A stretch of DNA of 64,000 nt, taken from Myxococcota bacterium. Its GTDB lineage: Bacteria; Myxococcota_A; UBA9160; UBA6930. The position numbers and the translations under genes are program-made. The notes beneath the pieces are model-generated. The model was not told where the DNA came from. It did not search any database and saw only the letters and a program-made list of their open reading frames with translations. Each line of letters begins with the position of its first letter. The stretch's first letter is position 1. Where the stretch lies: contig OZ245015.1 of NCBI GenBank assembly GCA_965223705.1, forward strand, positions 1,536,001 through 1,600,000, read 5' to 3'. Shown here in pieces: positions 21,249-37,131 of the stretch.

Positions 21249-22585
21249 GTCGAGGCTCGGTGCGGGGTGACTCGCGGATGAGTCGACGCTTGGCGCTCGG
21301 TGTGACGGCGGCGGCCACGATCGGGCTGGGCTTAGCCTCTGCGCTGGCCGCTTCGGCGGGCGCGTGGCTCGCGTTCGTCGCCGCGTTTGCCGCCGCCACC
21401 GCGTATGAGCGGCTCCGCCGCGCGCGGTCCTTCGGGCGCGACGACGTCACGCGTTTGGTCGTCGCGGGCAGTGTGGGCCTCCTCGCGGGCCTGTGGTCGT
21501 TCGCGACAGGTGGCTTCGGTGTCGGGGGCTTTCTTCTCGCGTTGGGTATCGCCCAAATTCTGACGGCGACCCACGGAGTGCTCGGGCTGTTGCCCAAGCT
21601 GGAAGGATCCGATGCCGAACGACGTGCGGGTCCCGGGATCCACGCTTCTCTCGCGCTCGACGAGTGGGGGCGCTGCGGCCGGCGTATGCGACGCTTCATC
21701 CGCGCCGACAAGCCCGGTGCCGCGGAGTCCATGAGCGCCGAAGCCGGCCGGCCGGAGGTTCTTCTCCAAGCTCCGGCGAAGCCTGAGATCAAGGACCGTA
21801 AGTCATTTGTCGAGCTCCGGTTTCCTTCTCCATCGGACGAGCAGCGCGAGGTTCGGGTGGCCCTCTGGCGGGCCGGCGAACGGCCTGGCCCCGCACTGCT
21901 CGTACTTCCGTCTCCTCGCTGGCGCCCGGACGCGGTGGCGCGCTACCTGGCCCGGCCCTCGCGCTGGCGCTCACTCGGGCTCGATGTCGCGGTGATGTCG
22001 TGCGGCACCTCACGCCGCGACACTTTGCGCGATTTCGCGGATCGCCCCGCCGACGCTTCGGCCTGGATCGAGCGCACGGCCCGCGAGGCGCGGGCGGTGA
22101 TCGGTTGGCTCGCTTCCGAAGGGACGCCGCGGGTCGGATTGTGTGGTTTCGGTTGGGGGGCGAGCGCGGCGAGTTGGCTCGCGACGAAGCTGCCCGAACT
22201 CGCCAGTCTGGTACTCGTCGCACCCATCCCCGAGCCCCAGGGCGTCGCTTCGGACGGGCTTCCCGAGCGGCCGGAATCGCTCGAGTCATTCGCTCCGTGG
22301 ATGCCCGCGCGACACGACGCAGCGGTCTCCCCGGGATCGGCCTTCATCGTCGCCCCTCAGGTCGACGAACTCGCGCCGCCCGAGGACCTTCGTCGCTTGC
22401 GAGATCGCGTGAATCCCGGTGGCTGGGTCGTGGTGCCCGGCGGGCGCTCGCGCGCGCTCTCGCTCGCTGGCGGCGCCAGCGAGCGGGTCGAGGAGCACTT
22501 GCGGCGCACGCTGCTCGACGCGCCGGCCTCCGCCGAAGTACCGCTCTCGCGCTTTCGGAGACGCTCGGACGACGGGTCGGCCTAA
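21245..22585 (+). CDS. Membrane-anchored alpha/beta-hydrolase-fold protein, possibly inactive
   Basis: N-terminal TM helices; elbow reads GFGWG instead of GxSxG; ATGA overlap. Confidence 0.55.
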   Translation: MSRGSVRGDSRMSRRLALGVTAAATIGLGLASALAASAGAWLAFVAAFAAATAYERLRRARSFGRDDVTRLVVAGSVGLLAGLWSFATGGFGVGGFLLALGIAQILTATHGVLGLLPKLEGSDAERRAGPGIHASLALDEWGRCGRRMRRFIRADKPGAAESMSAEAGRPEVLLQAPAKPEIKDRKSFVELRFPSPSDEQREVRVALWRAGERPGPALLVLPSPRWRPDAVARYLARPSRWRSLGLDVAVMSCGTSRRDTLRDFADRPADASAWIERTAREARAVIGWLASEGTPRVGLCGFGWGASAASWLATKLPELASLVLVAPIPEPQGVASDGLPERPESLESFAPWMPARHDAAVSPGSAFIVAPQVDELAPPEDLRRLRDRVNPGGWVVVPGGRSRALSLAGGASERVEEHLRRTLLDAPASAEVPLSRFRRRSDDGSA

Positions 22586-24243
22586 CGCGACCGGTTCGTG
22601 AGCAACAAGTTGGCGCCGGCCAGCATGACCCAGAGGTCCGCGATGAGAATCGCGCTCCCGATCAGTGCGAGAAGCCAGCGCTCGCCGAACGCGGCGAAGT
22701 AGCTCGCGACTTCTCCCAGCATCGCGATGATCGTCGTCAGCCCGACGAAGAGCATCGGGAGCAGGGTGTAGACGATGGGGCGGCCGGTCTGTCGCAGCCA
22801 GACGCTTACGACCAAGAGGGTCGCTCCCGCGACGAGTTGGTTCGTCGTGCCGAACAGCGGCCACAGGATGAGTCCGCCCCGGCCGTCGGCCTGTGTCAAC
22901 GCCAGGAGGAGAGCGGCGCCGATCCCGAGGGCCGAGGCGGCGAACCGGTTCGTCAAGGGCTTGATGCCTACCCGCGAGGCGAGCTCTGCGATCACGAGTC
23001 GCTGGATCCGCGCGCCGGTGTCGAGGGAGGTCGCGGCGAACGCGATCACCATCACGGCGATGAAGGTCCGCGCGGTGTCGATGGGAATGCCCAGCGCGGC
23101 GACAAACGTCGCACCGCCTCCGACGAAGGCTTCGAGTTTCGCGCCGAGGCCGTTCGCCTCACCCCAGCTGGCGTAGTGGTGCGACCACCCGGCGGCGGTG
23201 GCGAAGCCCGCTGTTGCGGCGAGGACCGCCAGCATGCCGAGCGTCCCCTCACCGAGCATGCTCCCGTAGCCGATCGGCGTGGCGTCGGTCATGCAGCGCA
23301 CTTGTTTCGATGTCGTCCCCGACCCGACCAGTCCGTGGAAACCCGAAATCGCGCCGCAAGCAATCGTGATGAACAGGAACGGAATCATCGGCGGGGCGCC
23401 TTCCGGCGCCCAATTGACCACCGGGGCCACCACCGTCGGCTGCAGCACGACCAACCCGCCGATGAGGACCGCGAGCCCGGTCAGCAACTGGTGCGCGTTC
23501 AAGTAATCGCGCGGTTGTAGCAGGAGCCAGACCGGAAGGACGGACGCCGCGAAGGAATACAGCAGGAGGATCCATACCCAGTTGAGGACCGACAGCTCGG
23601 CGATCGCGGGGAAGGCGGCGACGAGCGCGTCGCCCCAGAAGATCGCGGCGAGGAGCACAGCGTAACCGATGACCGACGGCGCTCCGAGCGCGATGCCTCG
23701 CCGATGCACCAACCAACCGAGAAGCATCGCCACCAGGATCTGGATGTTGATCGGGAAGATCGCGCTGGGCGTGCCCACGAAGAGCGTCGCGATGATGTAG
23801 GAGAAGACCGCGAGGACGATCCAAATGAGCAGCGAGATGATCAGCAGGAACAAGAGCTGCGCGCGCGGGCCGATCACCTGACCCGCGATATCCCCGATCG
23901 AACGTCCGCGGTTGCGCAGGCTGATCACCAGAGCTGAAAAGTCGTGTACCGCTCCCATGAAGACCGTGCCCAGGACGACCCACAGGAGCGCCGGAAGCCA
24001 GCCCCAGATGACGGCGATCGCCGGGCCCACGATCGGCGCGGCACCGGCGATGGACGTGAAGTGGTGGCCCCAGAGAATGCGCTTGTCCGTCGGGACGTAG
24101 TCGACGCCATCGCGATAGGTTTCGGACGGCACGGGCTCATCGTCGGCCAGCGCGAAAATCTTGCGGGACAAGAAGCGGGCATAGGTCCGGTAGCCGATCA
24201 GGAACAGGGCGACGGTTCCGAGTGCGATCCACGCGGCGTTCAC
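22582..24243 (-). CDS. cstA: Carbon starvation protein A (peptide/pyruvate transporter)
   Basis: GHHFTSIAGAAPIVGP, LLQPRDY, ACGAISGFH, LFGTTNQL. Confidence 0.95.
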   Translation of the reverse strand: MNAAWIALGTVALFLIGYRTYARFLSRKIFALADDEPVPSETYRDGVDYVPTDKRILWGHHFTSIAGAAPIVGPAIAVIWGWLPALLWVVLGTVFMGAVHDFSALVISLRNRGRSIGDIAGQVIGPRAQLLFLLIISLLIWIVLAVFSYIIATLFVGTPSAIFPINIQILVAMLLGWLVHRRGIALGAPSVIGYAVLLAAIFWGDALVAAFPAIAELSVLNWVWILLLYSFAASVLPVWLLLQPRDYLNAHQLLTGLAVLIGGLVVLQPTVVAPVVNWAPEGAPPMIPFLFITIACGAISGFHGLVGSGTTSKQVRCMTDATPIGYGSMLGEGTLGMLAVLAATAGFATAAGWSHHYASWGEANGLGAKLEAFVGGGATFVAALGIPIDTARTFIAVMVIAFAATSLDTGARIQRLVIAELASRVGIKPLTNRFAASALGIGAALLLALTQADGRGGLILWPLFGTTNQLVAGATLLVVSVWLRQTGRPIVYTLLPMLFVGLTTIIAMLGEVASYFAAFGERWLLALIGSAILIADLWVMLAGANLLLTNRSR

Positions 24244-24253
24244 GATGCCTCCT

Positions 24254-25885
24254 CTAGCCGCCGGCCACCGGGATGAACAGCGGCCCCCCAGGCCCGAGCG
24301 GGACTTCGAGGCTGATCCAGACGAGAAGCAAGATCAACCACGCACCCGCGAAAGCCAACGCGTAGGGGATCATCATCGAAAGCAAGGTGCCGAGACCCGC
24401 CTTCGGCACGTAGCGCCGCAGGAACGCGAGGATGATGACGAGGTACGGGTTCAGGGGCGTGATGACGTTGGTCACCGAGTCCCCCACGCGATACGCCGCC
24501 TGCGTGAGCTCGGGGCTGATTCCCACCTGCATGAACATCGGTACAAAGACCGGCGCGAAGAACGCGTACTTGGCGGACATCGAGCCAATGAGGAGGTTCG
24601 CCAGCGCGACGACGAGCACGAAGCTCGCCACGAGCCCGCCGGCCGGTAGATCCGCGGAAGCGAGAAACTCGCCGCCCGTAATCGCCAACATCTCTCCGAG
24701 TCCCGAATAGCGGAAGTACTCGATGAACTGGGCCGCGAAAAAGGCGAGGGCGATGTAGGGGCCCATGCCGGCCATGGTTTCGCCCAAGAGCTTCGCCGCG
24801 TCGCGATCGGAGCGGACGGTTCCGACGGCGATTCCGTAGGCGATGCCCGGAACGAGGAAGCCGATGAACATGAGCGGTACGACGGCGCTCACCCAACGCG
24901 GGAAACGGCCGTCCATGCCGTTGAGCGGCGCTCCCGGAATCCAGGTGGCGGCCACCATCACGCCGAGCACGGCCGCGGCGCAGAAGAGCGCGACGGCGAG
25001 CGCGCGCTTCTCACCTGGCTCAAGGCCGACCGCAACGTCGCTGTGTTCGGCGGGCCCTCCGTCTTCGGCCGTCTTGTCGGCAAAGCGAGGTTCGACCCAC
25101 CAGGCGCTCGTCGCCCAGCCGACGACCGTCAGCAGTCCCGTCGAGACGATGAGAAACCACAGGTTGGCCGTCGCCGCGACGCGGTACTCGGGATCGACGA
25201 GGCGCGCCCCCGCTTCCGAGAATCCCGCGAGGATCGTATCGAGGCTCGTCACCATCAAGTTCGCGCTGAAGCCGGCCGCGACACCCGCAAAGACGGCGGC
25301 GAGACCCGCGGCCGGCGACCGGCCCACCGCGGCGTAGAGCGCCGCCGCGATCGGCGGCAGCACGACGTACCCGGCGTCGAGGGCCAAGGACGAGACGACG
25401 CCGACCGCGAAGACCGCGGGGGTGAGCAGGGGGCCCGGGACGTTGATCAGCGTCGCGCGCAGGAAGGCGGAAATAAATCCGGTTCGGTCGGCCAACCCGA
25501 TCCCAAGCATTCCAACCAGTACCACCACCAAAGGTGGAAAGTTCTTGAAGTTTTCGACCAGGCTCGAGACCGCGAAATAGAGGCCATCGGAAGACAGCAG
25601 ACTGCGCGCCCGCACCGGATCCTGCGCGACCTCCCGCACGGGGAGACCTTCATCATCGACTCGGGGGATCTGCACGGGAGCGCCGGTCAAGGGGTTCCGC
25701 ACGGGCTCACCATCGGCTTGGCGGACGACATCCATCGCCTGCACCGATGTCCGTTTGTAGACCGTCCAGTCCAGCTCCACGGCGGCGTGCGAGACGACCA
25801 TGACGCCGAGCGCACCGAGGGCGAAGAGGGTGATCGGGTCGGGGAGCAGGTTGCCGAGACGTTCTACGCGATCGAGCCAACTCAT
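24254..25885 (-). CDS. abgT: AbgT-family transporter
   Basis: LDRVERLGN.LPDP, GFSAN, AYRVGDS.TN.ITP. Confidence 0.9.
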   Translation of the reverse strand: MSWLDRVERLGNLLPDPITLFALGALGVMVVSHAAVELDWTVYKRTSVQAMDVVRQADGEPVRNPLTGAPVQIPRVDDEGLPVREVAQDPVRARSLLSSDGLYFAVSSLVENFKNFPPLVVVLVGMLGIGLADRTGFISAFLRATLINVPGPLLTPAVFAVGVVSSLALDAGYVVLPPIAAALYAAVGRSPAAGLAAVFAGVAAGFSANLMVTSLDTILAGFSEAGARLVDPEYRVAATANLWFLIVSTGLLTVVGWATSAWWVEPRFADKTAEDGGPAEHSDVAVGLEPGEKRALAVALFCAAAVLGVMVAATWIPGAPLNGMDGRFPRWVSAVVPLMFIGFLVPGIAYGIAVGTVRSDRDAAKLLGETMAGMGPYIALAFFAAQFIEYFRYSGLGEMLAITGGEFLASADLPAGGLVASFVLVVALANLLIGSMSAKYAFFAPVFVPMFMQVGISPELTQAAYRVGDSVTNVITPLNPYLVIILAFLRRYVPKAGLGTLLSMMIPYALAFAGAWLILLLVWISLEVPLGPGGPLFIPVAGG

Positions 25886-26331
25886 TGCGCTCCCTTTCTC
25901 AATGCGTGGAGACGGTATGCCGCGACCCCCAGGAGTGCCCCGAAACCGTCGATTCCGACGTCCTGGAGGCTGCCCGTCCGAACCGCCGACGTCGACTGGA
26001 AGCCCTCGTCGATGAGCGCGATGGAGATCGCCAGCAGCCACGCCCACAGCAAGGATCGAGAAAGGGGCACCGATCGCGCGAGCGCTCGGGCCGTCAGCAG
26101 CCCGAGGCCGGCGTACTCAGCGAGATGAGCGCCCTTCCGGACGAGGACGTGGAGGACCCGCAAGGTCGCCTTCGAGACGTCCGCTCCGAGCTCCGCGAGG
26201 ATGTGAGCGAGAAGCCCGCCCGTGGCGGTCGCGGAGAAGTTGTCCGATGCGAGTACCAAGATCAGCAGCGCCCAAGCGCCCGCCACCAGCCAGGCGCGGG
26301 TCGCCGAACGCGAGCCGCGGAACCCCCCCAT
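25882..26331 (-). CDS. VanZ-family membrane protein
   Basis: RKGAH..EY..L, DE..Q....RTG...DV.ID. Confidence 0.85.
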   Translation of the reverse strand: MGGFRGSRSATRAWLVAGAWALLILVLASDNFSATATGGLLAHILAELGADVSKATLRVLHVLVRKGAHLAEYAGLGLLTARALARSVPLSRSLLWAWLLAISIALIDEGFQSTSAVRTGSLQDVGIDGFGALLGVAAYRLHALRKGAQ

Positions 26332-26416: not shown

Positions 26417-27400
26417 ATGCGCGTTGGGATCGTCTTCGAATTGCTCCGCCCCGTTCCCGCTGGCTCGGGGCTGCCGGCCGACGCTTTCGATGAGTACGAG
26501 CCCGAAGCGACGCTGACGCTCCTCGAAGACGCGCTGGCACACGCGGGCGCCGAGCCGGTGCGGCTGGGAGGGCCGCGCGAACTCTTCGCGAAAGCGTCCG
26601 ACGGGGCGCCCGACGTCGACGCGGTTCTGAACATCGCCGAGGGTTACGGCACCCGAAACCGGGAAGCCTGGGCACCGGTGCTCCTCGAGATGTGGGAGCT
26701 TCCGACCCTCGGGAGCGATGCGCTTGCACTGTCGGCGAGCCTCGACAAGGTCTTTGCGAAACGCATTGTCGCGGGCGCGGGCGTGCCGGTTGCACCGGAT
26801 TGCTGCATCGCGGTGAACGCGTCTCCCGGCGCGGCGTTGCCCGGGCCGTTCCCTCTGTTCGTCAAGCCTCGCTGGGAAGGCACGGCAAAAGGCATTGAAC
26901 GGCACTCGCGGGTCGAGAGCCGAGACGAACTCGAACGCGCCGTCACGCGCGTCCACCGCGTCTACGGCCAACCGGCCCTCGTCGAGCCCTTCCTCGACGG
27001 CGCGGAATACACCGTGACGGTCGTGGGCCACGCACCCGCGAGGGCACTGCCGGCGTTGCAGCGCGCCCTCGACTCGGAGAGCGGTATCGGGGCCCACGCG
27101 ATCGCGCCGTCCTCGGTCGCCGGACACGAGTTGCCAGGCTCCTTGACGCCCGAACTCGAAAGCGAGCTCGCGGAGGCGTCCCTCGCCGCGTTCGAAGCGC
27201 TCGGCTGCCTCGATTTCGCCCGCGTCGACTTTCGCCTCGACGCCCGCGGCCGGCCGTTCTTCCTCGAGATCAACCCGCTGCCGACCTTCGCGCCGGACGG
27301 TTCTTTCGGCATCCTCGCCGAGCTCGAAGGCCGGAGCGCCGCAGAATGGGTCGGCGACGTCCTCGCCGAAGGGCTTGCGCGGCTGGGGTTGCGCGAATGA
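26417..27400 (+). CDS. D-Ala-D-Ala-ligase-like ATP-grasp enzyme
   Basis: NIAEG, LDK, FVKP..EGT.KGI, ARVDFR, FLEINPLP. Confidence 0.88.
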   Translation: MRVGIVFELLRPVPAGSGLPADAFDEYEPEATLTLLEDALAHAGAEPVRLGGPRELFAKASDGAPDVDAVLNIAEGYGTRNREAWAPVLLEMWELPTLGSDALALSASLDKVFAKRIVAGAGVPVAPDCCIAVNASPGAALPGPFPLFVKPRWEGTAKGIERHSRVESRDELERAVTRVHRVYGQPALVEPFLDGAEYTVTVVGHAPARALPALQRALDSESGIGAHAIAPSSVAGHELPGSLTPELESELAEASLAAFEALGCLDFARVDFRLDARGRPFFLEINPLPTFAPDGSFGILAELEGRSAAEWVGDVLAEGLARLGLRE

Positions 27401-28476
27401 CGGCGGCGGAATTCCGAGACTGGACGTGGCAGATGCAGCACCGCGTCCGCAGCGCCGCGGATCTCGAGCGCTACATCCGCGTGACCGACGATGAGCGACA
27501 GGCGATCTCCGCACTCGCGGAGCGCTTCCGGTTCGTCATCACGCCGTATTACGCGTCGTTGATGGATCCCGACGATCCGAACTGTCCGGTGCGGCGGCAG
27601 GTGGTGCCGCGCACCGCCGAGCTCGACGACTCCGCCGGGCTCGCCGACCCCCTCGACGAAGTCGCCCATTCGCCCGTGAAAAACGTCATTCGCGTCTATC
27701 CCGACCGGATCGCGTTTTGCGTGAACAACGAGTGCGCCCTCTATTGTCGCTACTGCCTGCGCAAACGGATGGTCGGCGACGAGGAGTGGGCGATGAAGCG
27801 CCGCGAGCTCGGCGAGGCGCTCGAATGGATCGCCGCGACGCCCGAGATCCGCGACGTCCTGCTCACCGGCGGCGATCCGCTGGTCTTCTCCGATTCGCGC
27901 CTCGAGTGGCTCATCGCCGCGCTTCGCGAGATTCCGCACGTCGAGATCATTCGCCTCGGGACTCGGCTGCCCGTCACGTTGCCGTTCCGCGTCACCGACG
28001 AGCTCTGCCAAATGCTCGCCCGGTACCATCCGATTTGGCTCAATACCCACTTCAACCACCCGAAAGAGCTCACTGCCGAAGCGCGGGAAGCGTGCGAGCG
28101 GCTCGCGGCCGCGGGTATTCCGGTCGGTAACCAGAGCGTGCTGCTCGCCGGTATCAACGACGACGCGGCGGTGATGAAAGAGCTCGTCGAAGGACTCGTA
28201 CGCATGCGGGTACGTCCCTACTACTGCTACCAGGCGCAGCTCCTGGAAGGCACGGCACATTTTCGCGTTCCGGTCGAACGGGGGATCGATCTGTTCCGCG
28301 CTCTGCGCGGCAGGACGAGTGGCTTCGCGATCCCGCAGTACGTGCTCGACACGCCGCACGGCAAGGTCCCTCTCGACTACCCGCATTTTCGTGGGCGGGA
28401 GGGCGACGCCGTCGTTGTCGAAACCTTCGACGGCACCCTCTGGTCGGAGCCCAATCCACTCGGCGGGGACGGATGA
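27397..28476 (+). CDS. KamA-family radical SAM/PLP 2,3-aminomutase
   Basis: CALYCRYCLR, LLTGGDPL, HFNHP.E, NQSVLL.GIND, GKVP. Confidence 0.92.
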   Translation: MTAAEFRDWTWQMQHRVRSAADLERYIRVTDDERQAISALAERFRFVITPYYASLMDPDDPNCPVRRQVVPRTAELDDSAGLADPLDEVAHSPVKNVIRVYPDRIAFCVNNECALYCRYCLRKRMVGDEEWAMKRRELGEALEWIAATPEIRDVLLTGGDPLVFSDSRLEWLIAALREIPHVEIIRLGTRLPVTLPFRVTDELCQMLARYHPIWLNTHFNHPKELTAEAREACERLAAAGIPVGNQSVLLAGINDDAAVMKELVEGLVRMRVRPYYCYQAQLLEGTAHFRVPVERGIDLFRALRGRTSGFAIPQYVLDTPHGKVPLDYPHFRGREGDAVVVETFDGTLWSEPNPLGGDG

Positions 28477-29999
28477 AACGACTGTCCGCAGCCGCGCTGC
28501 TACTGGCCGGCAGCGTGCTGCTGTCGCGGGTGCTCGGCTTCCTGCGCGAGATCGTGCTGGCGCAGCAGATCGGCGTGAGTCCAGAGGCAGACGCCTACAG
28601 CGCCGCCTTCCAGATTCCGGACCTGCTGAACTATTTCCTCGCGGGCGGCGCGCTGTCGATCGCGTTCGTTCCCCTCTACACCCGGGCGAAGACCCGGGGT
28701 GGCCACGAAGAAGCCGGTCGATTGCTTGCCACGGTTCTCGGCACCGTTTCTGCAGCGGCGATCGCGGCGACGGCTTTGCTGTTTTGGTTCGCGGAGCCCC
28801 TGGTCGCTTTCCAGTTCCCTCGCTTTGACGCCGAGATGCAGGCGCTGACGGTGCGATTGACCCGCATCGTCCTGCCGGCGCAGATCGCGTTCGTCGCCGG
28901 CGGCATCGTCCGGGCCGGGCTCATGGCAGAAGGGCGCTTCCTGTCTCAGGCCCTGGCACCACTTCTCTACAACGCGGGCATCATCCTGGGCGGGCTTCTC
29001 TTTGCGCCCACCCTCGGTGTGGAGGGGTTTGCCTGGGGTGCGCTGGTCGGCGCGTTCGTCGGGCCGCTCGGCGCAGCCCTCATCGAAGCGCGCGGCCGCA
29101 TCGCGTTGCGCCTTCGCGTGGCACCCTTCGAGGCCGCTTTCGTTCGCTATCTCGTGCAGGCCCTACCGCTGATGCTCGGCGTCACGCTCCTCACTGTCGA
29201 CGAATGGTACGACCGCTGGTTCGGCCAACTGGGGGATGCGGGCACCATCGCGGCGCTTCGGTACGCACGCCAACTCATGCTGCTGCCGGTCGCTGTCGTC
29301 GGGCAGGCGGTCGCCACGGCGGCCCTGCCGACGCTCTCGAAGCTCTACGAGGAGGGGCGCCGAGAAGAGCTCGCCGACATCGTCCAGGGCACGCTCGGGG
29401 CGTCGGTGGCGCTGGCGTGTCTCGCGGGTGCGGCGACCTGGGCGTTGGCTGCGCCCATCGTCACGGTTGTCTACGAGCGCGGCGCATTCGATACCGATGC
29501 CGCCGCGCGCGTCGCTCCGGTTCTCGCGATGTTCGCGTTCGCGATTCCCGGCTGGATCACCCAGCAGATCGCGGTGCGGATCTTCTACGCCCAAGGCGAT
29601 ACCTGGCGACCGATGCTTCTCGGCACTGCACTGGCCGCACTCGCCATTCCGATCTACGCGACGCTCGGTCCGCGTTACGGCGCGCTCGGACTCGCCGCCG
29701 CCGGCGCGATCGCCATCAGCGCGAATGCTCTCGCGACCCTCTGCTGGGCTCGCGGTCGCTACGGCTTGCCGACGCTCGGTGCGCTGTCGGCGACCCTCGT
29801 TCGCGCATTATGCGTCGCCGCGTTGGCCGGAGGCGCCGCCCACCTCACCGCTGCAGCCCTCGCTCCGCCCTGGCTCGCCCTGTTCGCCGGGGGCGGCGCA
29901 TTCGCTGTGGTGGCGCTCGCCGCAGGTGCCACGATCGGCGATGACGCCATGCGCGGCGCCCTGCGCGGTCTGTGGCGAAAGGTCTCCCGTCGTGGCTAG
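28473..29999 (+). CDS. murJ: Lipid II flippase
   Basis: SRVLGFLRE, ADAY.AAF.IP, FVP.Y, ERGAF. Confidence 0.9.
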   Translation: MKRLSAAALLLAGSVLLSRVLGFLREIVLAQQIGVSPEADAYSAAFQIPDLLNYFLAGGALSIAFVPLYTRAKTRGGHEEAGRLLATVLGTVSAAAIAATALLFWFAEPLVAFQFPRFDAEMQALTVRLTRIVLPAQIAFVAGGIVRAGLMAEGRFLSQALAPLLYNAGIILGGLLFAPTLGVEGFAWGALVGAFVGPLGAALIEARGRIALRLRVAPFEAAFVRYLVQALPLMLGVTLLTVDEWYDRWFGQLGDAGTIAALRYARQLMLLPVAVVGQAVATAALPTLSKLYEEGRREELADIVQGTLGASVALACLAGAATWALAAPIVTVVYERGAFDTDAAARVAPVLAMFAFAIPGWITQQIAVRIFYAQGDTWRPMLLGTALAALAIPIYATLGPRYGALGLAAAGAIAISANALATLCWARGRYGLPTLGALSATLVRALCVAALAGGAAHLTAAALAPPWLALFAGGGAFAVVALAAGATIGDDAMRGALRGLWRKVSRRG

Positions 30000-32900
30000 C
30001 GCCTGGGAGTTCTGGATCGATCGCGGCGGCACGTTTACAGATTGCATCGGCGTCGCTCCGTCAGGCCGCACCTACACGGCGAAACGGTTGTCTTCGGAGA
30101 CCGCGGCGGCCGAAGCGATTCGGGACATTCTCGCTTCTGCGCCGGAGCCTTCTGCAGAAGATCCGACACTGCGGGTGCGGATGGGGACGACGGTCGCCAC
30201 GAACGCACTCCTCGAGCGTCGGGGCGTACCGACGGCGCTCATTACGCAGCGTGGACTCGGCGACGTGCTCGAAATCGGCACCCAGGAGCGTCCCGAACTC
30301 TTCGACCTCGACATTCGAAGGCCGCCTCCGCTGACGCGGCGCGTGATCGAAGTCGACGGTCGGGTCGATGCGCGGGGGGAAACGCTCGGCATTCTCGAGG
30401 AAGCACCGCTTCGCGAAGAGCTTCGCGACGCGCGGGCGAACGGCATCCAGTCCGTCGCCGTGCTCGCGATGCATGCCTACGCGTTCCCCGAGCTCGAAGA
30501 GCGGATTGCGGCGTGCGCGCGCGAGGAGGGAATCGCGTACGTCGTCCCTTCGCACGAAGCCGCGTCGGAGCTCGGTTTCCTCGCGCGAGGCGAGACGGCA
30601 GTCGCCGACGCTTACCTGACGCCGCTGTTGGCGCGGCACATCGACGTCCTGCGAGAAGCGCTTCCGGGGGCGCGCCTCCACTTCATGCAGAGCTCCGGTG
30701 GCCTCACGCGACCCGAGAGTTTTCGGGGACCCGCGGCGCTGTTGTCGGGGCCGGCCGGGGGCGTCATCGGCACGGCCCACGTTGCTTCACTCCTGGGCAT
30801 GCGCCGCGCGATCGGCTTCGACATGGGGGGGACTTCGACGGATGTCTCGCTCGTGGTGGACGGCGAAGCGGAGCGCGCTTTTGAGAGCGTCGTAGCGGGC
30901 ATCCGCGTGCGCGCACCCATGCTTCATATTCACACGGTCGCGGCGGGCGGCGGCTCGTTATGCCGTTTCGACGGCGCCCGGGCGAGCGTTGGGCCCGAAA
31001 GCGCGGGAGCTGATCCCGGGCCCCTTTGCTACGGACGCGACGCTTCCGGCGAGGGGGGCCTCGCCTTGACCGATGTCAACTTCTGGCTCGATCGGATTCC
31101 GGGCGATCGTCTGCCGTTCCCTCTCGAGCGGGCGCCGGTCGCCGCTGCGTTCGATCGCCTGATTCGCGAGCTCACCGAAGCGGGCCACGAATTCGAGCCC
31201 GACGAGCTGGCGGCGGGTTTCATCGACATCGCGAATGATGCGATGGCCCAAGCGATTCAGGAGGTATCGGTGCGTCGCGGTGTCGATCCGCGAGATTTCG
31301 CCTTGGTCGGTTTCGGAGGCGCGGGGGGACAACACGTTTGCGCCGTGGCGCGCAAGCTTCGAATTCGCACGGTCCTCCTCCACCCCCAAGGCGGCGTGCT
31401 GTCGGCGTTCGGCATCGGTGTCGCCGACTTGACCTGGGATCGCCAACGCGACGTCGGGCGGGCGCCGCTCGTCGAGGGGCGTGCCGACCCCTCCGTCCTC
31501 GACACGCTAGCTGCGCTCGAAGCCGAGGGTCGCCGAGCACTCGCCGCGGAAACCGGTCAGCCGGAGGGCCGCGTCGAGATCGAGCGCTTCCTCGATTTGC
31601 GCTACCGCGGGACGGAATCCGCGTTGACCATCGCCGCGCCGGCGGAAGGGGATTTCGGCGCGGCGTTTCGCTTCGCTCACCGCGAGCGCTTCGGGTACGA
31701 CCGATCGGAACGCCCGATCGAAGTGACCACAGCACGCGTTCGCGCACGCGTCTCCGAGGCGCGCCCGCCGGAGGTCCCGTCGTTTGCGGAGGAACCCGGT
31801 ACGCCGATTCGGACGGCCCACGCGTGGTTCCCCGGGCGCGGACGTTGCGACGCTCCGGTGTTCCTGCGGGAGTCACTGGCGCTCGAGCAGACGATTGATG
31901 GTCCGGCCATCGTGCTCGAAGCGGCTTCGACGATTGTCCTCGACCCCGGTTTCCGGGCTCGGCTCGACGCGACCGGCGTTCTCGTCGTGACCGATGAAGC
32001 GCACGCCGAGCGTCGGGCATACCGGGACATCGACGCGGACGTCGCCGACCCGATCCGGCTCGAAGTGTTGGGAAACCGGTTCATGTCGATCGCCGAACGC
32101 ATGGGCTCGGTGCTCCGCAACACGTCGGTGTCGACGAATATTAAGGAGCGCCTCGACTATTCCTGTGCGGTGTTCGATCCGGAGGGCGGTCTGATCGCGA
32201 ACGCACCGCATATTCCGGTCCACCTGGGCGCGATGGGCGAAACCGTACGCTCGGTCCTCGAATCCTTCCCCGAGCTCGGAGCCGGCGACGTGATCGTCAC
32301 GAACGACCCGGCGCGCGGCGGCTCACACCTGCCCGATGTGACGGTCGTGGCTCCGGTGTTCGAAGAAGAGACGCTGCGTTTCTTCGTGGCGGCCCGCGGC
32401 CATCACGCGGATCTCGGCGGGAAGACGCCGGGATCGATGCCGGCGGACTCGATGACGCTGGCAGAAGAGGGCGTGTTGCTCCGCGCGTTTCCCCTCGTGC
32501 GCGGCGGCGTACTCGACGAGCGTCGTCTGCGCGCGGAACTCAGCGGCAGCGCGTTTCCGGCGCGCAACCCCGACGACAACGTCGCCGATCTCGAAGCGAT
32601 GACGGCAGCCTTGCGTTCAGGAGAGCAGCTCCTGAGAGCGCTCCTCTCCGAAGTCGGGCCGACCGTGGTCCTCGCGACGATGGTGCAGCTCAAGGAAGCG
32701 GCGGCCCGCAAGGTTGGTCTCGAGATCGCGCGCTTGGGGGACGGGCGACACGCTTTCGAAGACACCCTCGACGACGGGACGCCGATCCGGGTGGCGTTCG
32801 AAGTTTCCGGAGATCGGATGCGGATCGATTTCACGGGGAGCGGGGCGGTTCATCCGAGCAATCTGAACGCACCGCGCGCGGTCGTGCAGTCGGCGATCAT

Positions 32901-33564
32901 CTATGTGCTTCGTTCGCTCGTCGCCGATCGAATTCCCTTGAACGGCGGCTGCCTCGACCCGGTCGAGATTCGGCTGCCCTATCCGTCGATCCTCGACCCG
33001 CCGGACGGAGCCGCTGTCGTTGGAGGGAACGTCGAAACCAGTCAGCGTATCGTCGACGTGCTGCTCGGCGCCGTAGGGCGGGTCGCTGCGAGCCAGGGCA
33101 CGATGAACAACATCGCGTTCGGTAACGACCGGTTCGGTTACTACGAGACCCTCGGCGGCGGTGCTGGCGCGGGGGAGGATTTCGACGGCGCCTCAGGCGT
33201 GCACACCCACATGACGAACACCCGGATCACCGATCCCGAAGTGCTCGAAACACGCTATCCCGTGATTCTCGAAGCGTTCTCGATTCGGCGAGGCAGCGGA
33301 GGCGGCGGAAGACACCGCGGGGGTGACGGCCTATGCCGTGCATACCGGTTCCTCGAGCCCATCACGGTCTCACTACTCACCGAACGCCGAACGACGTCAC
33401 CTTACGGCATGGCCGGGGGCTCGCCGGGCCGTCCGGGACGGAACATGGTGCAACGCGGCGGGGAACCCGCGCAGAGTGTCGCAGGCCGCGCGACGCTCGA
33501 GCTCGACGCCGGCGATCGCCTTCGCATTGAGACGCCCGGCGGAGGCGGCTACGGGCGCCCTTGA
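29992..33564 (+). CDS. 5-oxoprolinase / hydantoinase A+B fusion
   Basis: [55 protein letters not shown]. Confidence 0.93.
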
Positions 33565-33602: not shown

Positions 33603-33678
33603 GGGCGCGTAGCTCAGTTGGCAGAGCAGCGGACTCTTAATCCGCGGGTCGTAGGTTCGATCCCTACCGCGCCTACCA
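33603..33678 (+). tRNA. tRNA-Lys(CTT)
   Basis: 76-nt cloverleaf, anticodon loop CT-CTT-AA, GTTCGA, encoded CCA. Confidence 0.97.
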
Positions 33679-33703: not shown

Positions 33704-34582
33704 CTACTTCACATATCGCTGATAGGTCTCGGCCGGAATCTCCTGCGTGTCGAGCAGCATGAAAAAGTCGGTCGTGCCAAACGCGCGGTCGAGCGCCGGG
33801 CCGCCGCACACGTTCGCGCCCAGCTGTAGGTAGCCTCGGACGAGACTCGGGATCGTCACCGACGTCTCCCGATCCGCGAGCTGTGGATCGAATCCTTGTT
33901 GGCGGTAGTCGTCGCGCACGGTCAGCCAGCGCTGCGCGACGTGGCCGCCGCGGGCGAACATCGCGTAGTACGCCGCGATCGCCCGGGCATCGGTCGTCGG
34001 CACCGATGCGCAACCGAAGAGATACCGCTTGCGGTTGTGTTCGAGGTAGTGACCGATGCCTCGCCACAAAAGAAACAGCACGCGTCTACCGCGATGCGCG
34101 CGCGCGACGCAGGCGCGCCCGAGCTCCACCCCTTGTTCGAGAATCGCGCCGGGCAGCTCCGCCAGATCGAATTCCGAGTCGGAGTAGAAGCCTGGGCCGG
34201 ACTCCGCCAGAGCGCGGGTCATCAGGCGGTACGTCCCGACGACTTCGCCGCTGCGATCGCACCGCACGAGCAAGTGATGACAGTTTCGGTCGAATACATC
34301 TTCGTCGCGCAAATGACCGATGGTGCCGTGACCGAGTTCGGCGTTGAAGACGTCGAAGCGCAGCCGCAGAACTTCGTCGAGCTCTTCCGGTGTGGTGGCA
34401 AAGCCGACGCGGTAGCGCCCGATCGCATCGTTCCATTGCGGAACGCCGCCCGGGTGGCCCGGGTACGCCCGCACGACCGGAGCGGCCCCGAAGGCATCTT
34501 CCCGGGCGAAGGAGGCGGAGTCTTCGGTCACCAGATCCTCGCCATCGAGGCCGGACCTTACCGCTTCGGTCTCCCGAATCAC
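33704..34582 (-). CDS. OlsB-like GNAT N-acyltransferase (ornithine/amino-acid lipid synthesis)
   Basis: LRFDVF..E, D.FD..C.HL, GTYRL, ELGR.CV...R, FGCAS, GYL..GA..CG.PA.D..F.T.D; GTGA overlap. Confidence 0.85.
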   Translation of the reverse strand: MIRETEAVRSGLDGEDLVTEDSASFAREDAFGAAPVVRAYPGHPGGVPQWNDAIGRYRVGFATTPEELDEVLRLRFDVFNAELGHGTIGHLRDEDVFDRNCHHLLVRCDRSGEVVGTYRLMTRALAESGPGFYSDSEFDLAELPGAILEQGVELGRACVARAHRGRRVLFLLWRGIGHYLEHNRKRYLFGCASVPTTDARAIAAYYAMFARGGHVAQRWLTVRDDYRQQGFDPQLADRETSVTIPSLVRGYLQLGANVCGGPALDRAFGTTDFFMLLDTQEIPAETYQRYVK

Positions 34583-37131
34583 AGCGTTCCCGCGGATGCG
34601 GACGAGGTGCTTGGCCGTCGTGCCATTCGCTGGCGGAACAGACGCGAAAGTTCCGCCCAGGAAGCCGGTCGCGCACCGGCGGCAACGTTTGCGGCGCCGA
34701 GTGCGAAAGCCAACCGCCACTGTTCGAAGAGCACGCGATAGGCGAAGAGAAGTCCGTAGCTCGGGTCGTACATGTGCGTGGCCTCCGACGTGATGCCGTT
34801 CAGCTCGATGACCTTGAACTCGCCGTCCGAGAACGCCTCGGGGCTCGAAGAGCGGACGTCGAATCGGCCGAAGTGGAAGCCGGTGAGGGCGCGGCCTACG
34901 CGATCGATCCGAAGCGCAAGGCTCTCGGTTTGGCGGGCCGAGCCGTCGAGGAAGACCGCGCCCCGAGAGTGCGTCCCGAGCTCGGTGAGCTGGATGCGCT
35001 CGCCGGAAGCGGGAATGTCGCCCAGACGATCGCGATGCCGTTCGAAGTGTCGTTCAGCCATGCAGACGGCCCGGTCGTCGTCGAGGATGAGTTCAGCCAA
35101 GCTGCGCCGACCGTCGCCCTCGACAAACAACATCCGCTTTTCGGTAATCGAGAAAATGTGCCCCTCCGCGTCGCTCGGGAACCGGATGTAGAACACCCCA
35201 AACTCGACGCCCGGTACGTATTCCTGGAGCAGCGCGTCGAACGGCTCGCTGCGGAGTACGCTCTGCAGGTCGTTCTCGTTTCGCACAATCCGAACACCGA
35301 AGCCCCGCTCGCCCTCGTCGGGTTTGATGACGATTGGTGTGTCGGCGTCGGCGCCGCGAAACCGCGCGATCTGATTGGTCGCATCGGCCCAATCGAAGCG
35401 CTCTGTTCGGGCGACCGCGCCCGGCTCGGCGCGTTGCAGCGAATGAAGGATCTGATACTTCGATTCGCCGACGAGCCCGCCGCCTTCGATTCCCGGATTC
35501 GCGGCCGTGACGACCCGAAGGCTTCGATATTTCACCGCGAGCCCTGCGATCTGCAAGAGGACGGGCGGATAGATCACCCACATCGGCCAGAACTCCCAGC
35601 GCCGCAAACGCTCGAACTTCCCGCGGAGCAGACGTCGGCCGCGGTGGTGGAAGAGCTTCGGCACGATCCGGGTCGCGATGAGGAGCGTGACCACCAGCAA
35701 CAGCAGGGTGACGAGAAGACGGTTCCGGAACAGGTCAACGTGATCGAGGAGCATCTCCCCGAACCAAGCGGAAGCTCCCACCAGGACGGGTGTCCACACG
35801 ACGGCCCCGAGCGCGAGGAGCCACGCGAAGCGAAACGCCGGGAAGCGCGCGACGCCTGCGCCGACGTAGAGAGGAAGTCGAGAACCCGGCACGAACCGGC
35901 TCAGCAGGACGGCCCACGACCCCCGCCGGAGTCCTTGTTCGCGCCACGCGGTAGAGCCGACGCCAAACCAGCGCCGCGCGGCCTTGCCCCCGAAACGACC
36001 GGTCGCGTAGAGCAACAGGTCCCCGAGGAAGAGACCGATCGCGCACGCCGCGATACCCAAGGGAAGCGGGATTTGACCGCGCGCCACGAGGAAGCCCACG
36101 CCGATACAGGTCAGGTCTTCGCTGACGAGCGTGGCGAGGAAGACCAGCGTGACGAAGATTGCGACCGCGAGGAAACCTCGGGGACCGGCGCGGTCGGGGC
36201 GGAAAGGGAGCTCCGCTCGCGCGACCCTCGCGGCTTTTGCCGCCGCGCGATCCGGTGTGCGGCCGGCTTCGGCGTCGGAGAAAAAAACCAACAATTCCGC
36301 GGCGATCGAGCGCGGGTGTCGAAACAACGCGAAGTGCCCGCCCGGGATCCAGCTGAACCGACTCTGGGGCACGATGCGGTGGTGCTCGCGCGCGGCGGCC
36401 GCGGGAACCAACGCGTCCCCTTCACTGTGAAGCACCAAGGTCGGGGCCGACAGGCGCTCGAGCATCCCGCGGAGTGGGCGCTGATCCGTGTCGTAGAAGT
36501 TCCGGGCGTACGCGGTGTTGAGCGGGAAGCGATCGAGCCAGCCGAAGTGGGGCAGGAGTGCCGTCGGCGCCGCGATCAGGAGCCACTGCGCGCCGTGGAC
36601 CATGTGGTTCAAGTCGTAATCGCCGAGAAGCTCGAACTCCTGCACGCCGACAGAAGAGAGCAGCGTCAGAGAAGCCACGCGCTCCGGAGCGCGATCGGCT
36701 GCGCGAATCGCGACGGCACCTCCCAGGCTGAAGCCGACCCAGTGCGCGCGTTCGATTCCCAAGCGCTCGAGGAGAGCGAGACACGCGGCGGCGTGAGACG
36801 CTGCCGAGTACACGGGGAGACGGGCTTCGGACGCACCGAAGCCGGGAAGATCCGGGACGATCACGCGGTAGCGCTCGGCCAACAGCGGTGTCAAACCCGC
36901 GAAGTTGTCCCCGCGACCGGGACTTCCGTGAAGTAGGAGAACCGCTTCGCGTTCGGGCGTGTCTCCGCCGACGTCGGCATAGGCCAGGCGGATCGGTTCC
37001 GCGCCGTAGGCGTCTACCTGGACGCGCACGCTCGCGTCCGGTGTCGGCGGCGGGTCCGCCGTGGCGCGCGTCCAATGAGAGGCGGCGAGAAGCGCGACGT
37101 AGACCGCTAGCAGCCAGGGAAGTTTTCGCAG
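34579..37131 (-). CDS. Alpha/beta-hydrolase - DedA/VTT - ATP-grasp fusion protein (probable CTG start)
   Basis: GFSLG...DALVP...GGHF; SEDL and RFVPGSR; KPDEGERG, GRFDVR, IELNG. Confidence 0.85.
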   Translation of the reverse strand: MRKLPWLLAVYVALLAASHWTRATADPPPTPDASVRVQVDAYGAEPIRLAYADVGGDTPEREAVLLLHGSPGRGDNFAGLTPLLAERYRVIVPDLPGFGASEARLPVYSAASHAAACLALLERLGIERAHWVGFSLGGAVAIRAADRAPERVASLTLLSSVGVQEFELLGDYDLNHMVHGAQWLLIAAPTALLPHFGWLDRFPLNTAYARNFYDTDQRPLRGMLERLSAPTLVLHSEGDALVPAAAAREHHRIVPQSRFSWIPGGHFALFRHPRSIAAELLVFFSDAEAGRTPDRAAAKAARVARAELPFRPDRAGPRGFLAVAIFVTLVFLATLVSEDLTCIGVGFLVARGQIPLPLGIAACAIGLFLGDLLLYATGRFGGKAARRWFGVGSTAWREQGLRRGSWAVLLSRFVPGSRLPLYVGAGVARFPAFRFAWLLALGAVVWTPVLVGASAWFGEMLLDHVDLFRNRLLVTLLLLVVTLLIATRIVPKLFHHRGRRLLRGKFERLRRWEFWPMWVIYPPVLLQIAGLAVKYRSLRVVTAANPGIEGGGLVGESKYQILHSLQRAEPGAVARTERFDWADATNQIARFRGADADTPIVIKPDEGERGFGVRIVRNENDLQSVLRSEPFDALLQEYVPGVEFGVFYIRFPSDAEGHIFSITEKRMLFVEGDGRRSLAELILDDDRAVCMAERHFERHRDRLGDIPASGERIQLTELGTHSRGAVFLDGSARQTESLALRIDRVGRALTGFHFGRFDVRSSSPEAFSDGEFKVIELNGITSEATHMYDPSYGLLFAYRVLFEQWRLAFALGAANVAAGARPASWAELSRLFRQRMARRPSTSSASAGTL

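Follow-up and report, generated by a model that had tools for sequence, protein, structure and literature searches.

Which amino acid does an aminomutase of the KamA family act on when its substrate pocket is altered and its gene adjoins that of a Ddl-like ligase, and is the product destined for the cell wall? The question is raised by a locus of a Myxococcota bacterium (GenBank assembly GCA_965223705.1, contig OZ245015.1) that lies in a window of 64,000 nucleotides, the whole stretch of DNA analysed here. Four genes follow one another on its + strand: a 327-aa Ddl-fold ATP-grasp ligase (26417-27400; PF07478, the Ddl C-terminal domain, E 1e-20), a 359-aa KamA-family 2,3-aminomutase dependent on radical S-adenosylmethionine (SAM) and pyridoxal phosphate (PLP) (27397-28476; Radical_SAM and LAM_C), murJ (28473-29999; TIGR01695, 264.7 versus a cut-off of 235.55) and a fused hydantoinase/5-oxoprolinase A+B gene (29992-33564; Pfam Hydantoinase A+B). 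An original prediction had read all four as a pathway to a beta-amino-acid cell-wall precursor. Its description of the layout is correct: the genes overlap (ATGA at 27397 and 28473, a GTG at 29992 within the murJ end), and a vanZ-family membrane protein gene (25882-26331, - strand; Pfam VanZ) is divergent. We propose, with confidence only a little better than even, that the ligase and the aminomutase convert a polar amino acid that is neither acidic nor lysine to its beta form and join it to an acceptor, and that murJ and the oxoprolinase gene are ordinary neighbours.

The model of the aminomutase (predicted local distance difference test, pLDDT, 88.5) matches the lysine 2,3-aminomutase KamA/AblA in PDB 2A5H at a template-modelling (TM) score of 0.88 with 47% identity. 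In the numbering of C. subterminale KamA, taken from the alignment to 2A5H, the enzyme keeps R134, Q258, Y290, D330 and the PLP lysine K337, together with the CxxxCxxC motif (C113/C117/C120 in its own numbering, where the PLP lysine is K323). It differs from KamA by five substitutions (D293Q, its own Q281; L118A; R112V; S169T; T133L) and by a deletion of two residues in the loop between D330 and K337, and the last 50 or so residues of KamA lie beyond the alignment. The motifs YQCD, VVDAPGGGGK and CRHCTR of 2A5H accordingly read YQAQ, VLDTPHGK and CRYCLR, which bears out the earlier reading of the pocket (carboxylate Arg and second Asp kept, YQAQ at the first Asp, short PLP-Lys loop). We take D293 and D330 to bind the side-chain amine of lysine, and R134 its carboxylate.

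The exchange at position 293 is not a chance one, because Gln293 is fixed in 91/91 distinct loci and in 120/120 top homologues, versus Asp293 in each of the 51 KamA-type loci found among the matches listed (80 loci); two loci of the pocket table gave no usable open reading frame (ORF). Fetched references carry D/D at 293/330 in KamA, AblA and AblA-like-2, D/E in EpmB and K/N in Eam sequences that exceed their cut-off, and 150 representatives at 50% clustering include 106 with D/D, seven with K/N and four with Q/D. A metagenome scan gave four loci, and the matches in the ESM Atlas were generic KamA clusters only.

The family models place the enzyme within the KamA family (TIGR00238, 348.6 versus 199.2) and below the cut-off of each narrower one. 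It scores 448.6 on the AblA/KamA model TIGR03820 (cut-off 525.4) and has Q/D where that family has the Asp293/Asp330 pair; 443.3 on the Eam model TIGR04368 (cut-off 650), without Lys293/Asn330; 417.9 on the arginine 2,3-aminomutase model TIGR04468 (cut-off 600), with a different pocket pair; and 249.5 on the EpmB model (cut-off 369.3). The AblA-like-2 model is not reached either. By cut-off or by pocket, the sequences set the aminomutase outside the lysine, glutamate and arginine families, and the ligase outside Ddl and Van. The aminomutase gene is the sole KamA-family gene of a genome that is 95% complete.

The pocket has several features in common with arginine 2,3-aminomutase of the BlsG type. 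The reference P0366 (Streptomyces griseocarneus; 629.9 versus 600), 50% identical to our enzyme and of similar length, shares the two-residue deletion, T169, a small residue at 118 (V118) and a single pocket acid; the short loop and T169 as marks of this family come from that one sequence. The arginine enzyme, however, keeps its acid at 293 (D/T), whereas the enzyme here keeps the one at 330 (Q/D). BlsG-type enzymes are encoded in antibiotic clusters, unlike the present gene, which is near-core in two orders. No arginine aminomutase over the cut-off was found among 251 Bacillota. Eam in turn shares T169 and A292, but has K293/N330 where our enzyme has Q293/D330 and no basic residue for a side-chain carboxylate.

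A phylogeny of the kind that the original prediction had suggested, here with KamA, Eam, EpmB and one arginine aminomutase as references, yields a separate clade. In the first tree, which excluded 28 of 81 rows, the Gln293 (Q) clade is separated from KamA, Eam and EpmB with a Shimodaira-Hasegawa-like approximate likelihood ratio test (SH-aLRT) value of 99. In the second, with more references (one row labelled Q, P0324, has His at 293), it forms one group (94). The branch around this group (91) also contains Eam, the arginine enzyme and a few others; KamA is a group of its own (99). A sister clade (L025, L026; P0247-P0357) from Spirochaetia and others also has Q293/D330, with YQCQ or FQCQ and CFREY or CLRKE motifs; its member P0374 is fused to a ligase.

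Given the retained cofactor residues, the [4Fe-4S]/SAM/PLP enzyme would, as in the rest of its family, move the alpha-amino group to the beta carbon. The pocket, with Asp330 kept, Asp293 replaced by Gln, site 118 widened from Leu to Ala and a short loop as in the arginine enzyme, argues against lysine and against Glu or Asp as the substrate. Arginine is a tentative lead because of the short loop, the wider 118 site and the single acid; some further amino acid appears about as probable. Glutamine is a weaker candidate, put forward because Q/D would be an amide-binding mirror of the K/N of Eam, and lysine a similarly doubtful one. Thus the original claim of a beta-amino acid other than beta-lysine stands insofar as the enzyme is not an ordinary KamA and, by pocket, scores and trees, probably has another substrate.

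We rate it rather unlikely that the enzyme is still a 2,3-aminomutase of lysine whose pocket has been re-tuned, in a reduced version of the widespread KamA plus Ddl-like ligase cassettes, making a beta-lysyl amide that may serve as a compatible solute. The retained Asp330, Arg134, Gln258 and Tyr290 fit this explanation, as does the fact that AblA gives the best equivalog score. Yet D/D is the rule among the 150 representatives, replacements of Asp293 mark the Eam-type and Q clades, the Q clade groups away from KamA, and for three of its members in Rhodothermota/Balneolota the arginine model gives the highest score. A solute role is plausible by analogy. PMC1224877 describes beta-amino-acid solutes of methanogens, with N-acetyl-beta-lysine made via ablA/ablB and beta-glutamine in Methanohalophilus; PMC9337991 treats ablA and eam as osmoprotectant genes; and the solutes given there for Rhodothermus marinus are mannosylglycerate and mannosylglyceramide (review; PMC1224877/PMC9337991).

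The ligase model (pLDDT 91.5) has its best fold matches in Ddl (TM about 0.73). The fold and the intact ATP, Mg and phosphate residues identify an ATP-grasp amide ligase; K111, K150, E190, E197, R269, D271, E284 and N286 are kept in 117-120 of 120 sequences. Its score on the Ddl model is 99.8 bits versus a cut-off of 243, and on the Van models at most 66 bits versus 495-775. Its identity to Ddl/Van ligases is about 25%. An alignment with the genome's own Ddl shows a remodelled D-Ala pocket and omega loop: the N-terminal GGxSxEHEVS and the YDYxxKY omega loop are absent, HG..GEDG is replaced by AEG..RNRE, GSS by GTA and NSLPG by NPLPT. The EGTAKG reported earlier is present where the genome's own Ddl reads GSSVG. 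The invariant motifs here are DxxxExE, AEG..RNRE, EGxxK, QRA and PLPT. These comparisons support the conclusion that the ligase is not a Ddl; below the cut-offs and lacking the D-Ala pocket motifs, it falls outside the D-Ala-D-Ala and Van ligases. Its predicted reaction is the formation of an acyl phosphate followed by transfer of the acyl group to an amine, and the beta-amino acid could be either partner of the amide, acyl donor or amine. A second Ddl-like ATP-grasp gene of this genome, under the Ddl cut-offs, lies at L082 (G000:C1:977-979 kb), beside a 373-aa unknown gene.

A related arrangement, itself uncharacterised, is one in which ordinary D/D KamA genes adjoin one or two Ddl-like ligases, sometimes fused. 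These ligases are 35-41% identical to ours and share the motif NIAEG..RNREA with it, a further point for the lysine explanation; the aminomutase pocket in those cassettes is unaltered, and the omega loop of the ligase differs. Both types can share a genome: G230 has the present pair and a separate ligase-ligase-KamA (D/D) cassette. The two are therefore probably not redundant, which counts against a beta-lysyl product. Another KamA-family gene, on a Rhizobium plasmid (L251:1409-5110), has D293/C330 and the short loop, a further pocket type with no assignment, and adjoins an ATP-grasp gene and an amino-acid dehydrogenase gene. A long-branch KamA-like gene (YQHD, D/D) was seen in four genomes of the Rhodothermales sample (L229-L232); in three, it lies upstream of genes for similar membrane proteins of 473-486 aa. 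AblB, the partner of KamA/AblA, is an acetyltransferase, whereas here the partner is a ligase.

To follow the pair through its lineage, we used a class sample of 225 genomes, 193 from the host order (which we take to be UBA9160 of GTDB) and 32 from a sister order, with ligase orthologues defined by E <=1e-60 and counted by hand. The named relatives of the locus are metagenome-assembled genomes of Myxococcota/Deltaproteobacteria. The ligase orthologue is present in 162/193 host-order genomes and 0/32 of the sister order, and an aminomutase match in 169/193; judged by its score, the match in G180 is probably an ordinary KamA. Among the 24 host-order genomes without an aminomutase, many of them incomplete assemblies, 17 also lack the ligase, six keep it and one has a partial match. 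The two genes are adjacent in 40/40 relatives picked by hand from the ligase matches for long contigs and family spread, and fused in two. The aminomutase clade further occurs in 72 of 101 sampled Rhodothermales, and in 22 of 30 loci of this order the ligase is no more than 1.5 kb away; in the unlinked cases the orthologue was elsewhere in the genome (5/5). These observations support the view that ligase and aminomutase are a conserved, functionally tied unit. BlsG with its ligase offers an analogy, and the pair is likely a module that supplies a beta-amino acid and ligates it. That most genomes of two unrelated orders have kept the pair points to a role in general physiology more than to a secondary metabolite of scattered occurrence.

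Several points weigh against this proposal. The pocket argument takes over the roles assigned to Arg134, Asp293 and Asp330 in KamA, and the one retained Asp leaves some room for lysine. Both trees are quick maximum-likelihood searches without bootstrap, in which the Q clade and the arginine enzyme join with a support of only 81. The 40 relatives were not a random draw. In two Spirochaetia (L025, L026) a Q293 enzyme occurs without a ligase orthologue, and the ligase persists without the aminomutase in the six genomes mentioned above, standing directly before murJ in G084, G087, G090 and G107. The ligase may thus be useful alone, and this position in front of murJ keeps a wall-related role possible. 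The aminomutase deletion is clean in these four genomes (L264, L263, L262 and L266, respectively), and no aminomutase match was found in 7/7 genomes of genus g41.

Is the product, then, delivered to the cell wall? The ligase could attach a beta-amino acid to a precursor of peptidoglycan, with the side chain of the diamino acid as one conceivable site, and the housekeeping MurJ would flip the modified lipid II. The ATP-grasp D-aspartate ligase of Enterococcus, which adds to the diamino acid side chain of the precursor, is an analogy. The synteny that the original prediction proposed to check is conserved within the host order: murJ is in the locus in 37/40 relatives, directly behind the aminomutase in 35 and after inserts in two, and was not seen in three, one of them at a contig end. 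The slot is kept even in four loci (L113, L135, L136, L137) in which the usual murJ has given way to a distant one of about 30% identity. Together with the Ddl fold, the ligase-murJ neighbourhood after aminomutase loss and the near-core status of the pair in two orders, this speaks for the wall.

The murJ gene itself, however, does not look pathway-specific. It is the genome's only gene over the TIGR01695 cut-off, as expected of a single-copy housekeeping gene (the next-best MurJ-like gene scores 83.5). The canonical copies sought elsewhere in the genome were found in part: there is no second true murJ, while a canonical Ddl is present (C1:665.9-666.5 kb by domain match; 421 bits versus 262), as are Alr, a mur/dcw cluster and six Mur-ligase domains. 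That the ligase substitutes for a missing Ddl, as a tblastn search without a second copy had suggested, is excluded by this family search. Of five host-order members that have no ligase orthologue, each retains that of murJ, and the oxoprolinase gene follows downstream; vanZ or abgT lies upstream in three, and in one of the five no more than a remnant of the aminomutase is left. Neither murJ nor the oxoprolinase gene was found near the aminomutase in 13/13 named Rhodothermota/Balneolota loci (flanks of up to 8 kb, some short) or in 30/30 further Rhodothermales loci (1.5 kb flanks). A murJ-oxoprolinase order that holds without the pair, an exchangeable murJ and its absence from the Rhodothermota loci point to lineage gene order, not to a dedicated flippase; as the place can be taken by an unrelated murJ, a co-adapted flippase is not required.

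Hence murJ is probably the housekeeping lipid II flippase, a co-oriented neighbour, and the oxoprolinase gene, of whose type the genome has many paralogues, is probably an ordinary neighbour of murJ. Their membership in the pathway finds no support, and from the claim about the ligase there survive its distinctness from Ddl and its tie to the aminomutase, not a dedicated delivery to a precursor flipped by MurJ. Nor does the locus resemble a van-type reprogramming cluster: in addition to the low Van scores, no dehydrogenase/racemase, D,D-peptidase or regulator was seen among the flanking genes scanned with Pfam, which are transporters, a phosphatase, a hydrolase and an acyltransferase. A housekeeping flippase could carry a modified precursor, and we regard a wall destination as possible and not favoured, an unlikely outcome overall. 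Less probable still is the specific combination of a glutamine 2,3-aminomutase, which would be the first (or one with another new substrate), and a ligase that attaches a beta-amino acid to the peptidoglycan precursor, with ordinary MurJ flipping. If true, an entire order of uncultured Myxococcota, together with most Rhodothermales, would have an undescribed cell-wall chemotype.

Returning to the pair with an acceptor of either kind, we also considered that it modifies a conserved protein such as elongation factor P (EF-P), as a non-homologous stand-in for EpmA/EpmB. The genome's EF-P has a PGKG lysine loop; no EpmA over the cut-off was found in this genome, in the 193 host-order genomes or in the 101 Rhodothermales; and the 12 class members with EpmA all lack the ligase orthologue. 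But genomes that lack the pair have no EpmA either, the EF-P loop is identical in 23 Rhodothermales with the aminomutase and seven without, and efp is not among the conserved neighbours in the loci read. By cut-off the genome has no EpmA/EpmB system, and its best genX match is lysyl-tRNA synthetase. As EpmA absence and the EF-P loop are the same with or without the pair and give no discriminating signal, we set this idea aside as very improbable. In family f11, 11 of 68 genomes match the genX/class II lysyl-tRNA synthetase profile at 1e-40, versus most elsewhere; this family may use another lysyl-tRNA synthetase class.

The pair is not described in those parts of the searched literature that were accessible (including PMC10702137, PMC12429584 and bioRxiv 10.1101/2025.11.21.689712), a search in which subscription journals are thinly covered. 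The NCBIfam models of the KamA family with a named substrate are those for lysine, glutamate and arginine, and the Q/D clade has a fourth pocket signature. Such a large and tightly conserved clade is a direct lead to a new radical enzyme that may form a beta-amino acid, and its fixed ligase partner a lead to an undescribed beta-amino-acyl amide; should the acceptor be a wall precursor, this would be new peptidoglycan chemistry. In the lineages that carry them, the two genes are now automatically named lysine aminomutase and D-Ala-D-Ala ligase. Rhodothermales carry the pair as a near-core feature and include cultured organisms (Rhodothermus marinus, Roseithermus), which makes the question testable.

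Among the Rhodothermales loci no shared third gene was seen beyond local neighbours. Several have a Cys/His-rich ORF of 78-80 aa (CxCGHDRYHH...) without a Pfam hit between ligase and aminomutase (L019:7678-7914, L021:5544-5780, L173:2614-2856 and others). Some carry tandem arrays of three to five paralogous genes of 270-300 aa (...YSExEV..I..RA..) just upstream of the ligase (L020:576-3968, L021:725-4356, L236:2047-6304); one such gene was scanned and had no Pfam hit. A 640-aa gene after murJ in some relatives, which merged gene calls had grouped with the aminomutase, is really a phosphodiesterase/nucleotide pyrophosphatase.

In the window, the GC content of the region (67-69%) is near the flank values, and a promoter/terminator scan found none at the operon head. 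Beyond vanZ lie an abgT-type transporter gene (24254-25885) and, further on, a cstA-type one (22582-24243). Within the locus of the 40 relatives the oxoprolinase gene recurs in 31, vanZ in 26 and abgT in 16, and vanZ adjoins murJ in G179 and G182, which lack the pair; the vanZ and abgT/cstA-type genes reflect lineage gene order. A tRNA-Lys(CTT) gene (33603-33678, + strand), preceded by a weak promoter-like site, stands directly 3' of the oxoprolinase gene. Convergent on it, a GNAT (Acetyltransf_5) acyltransferase gene lies behind a gene for an 816-aa fusion of an alpha/beta-hydrolase and a VTT domain (33704-37029, - strand).

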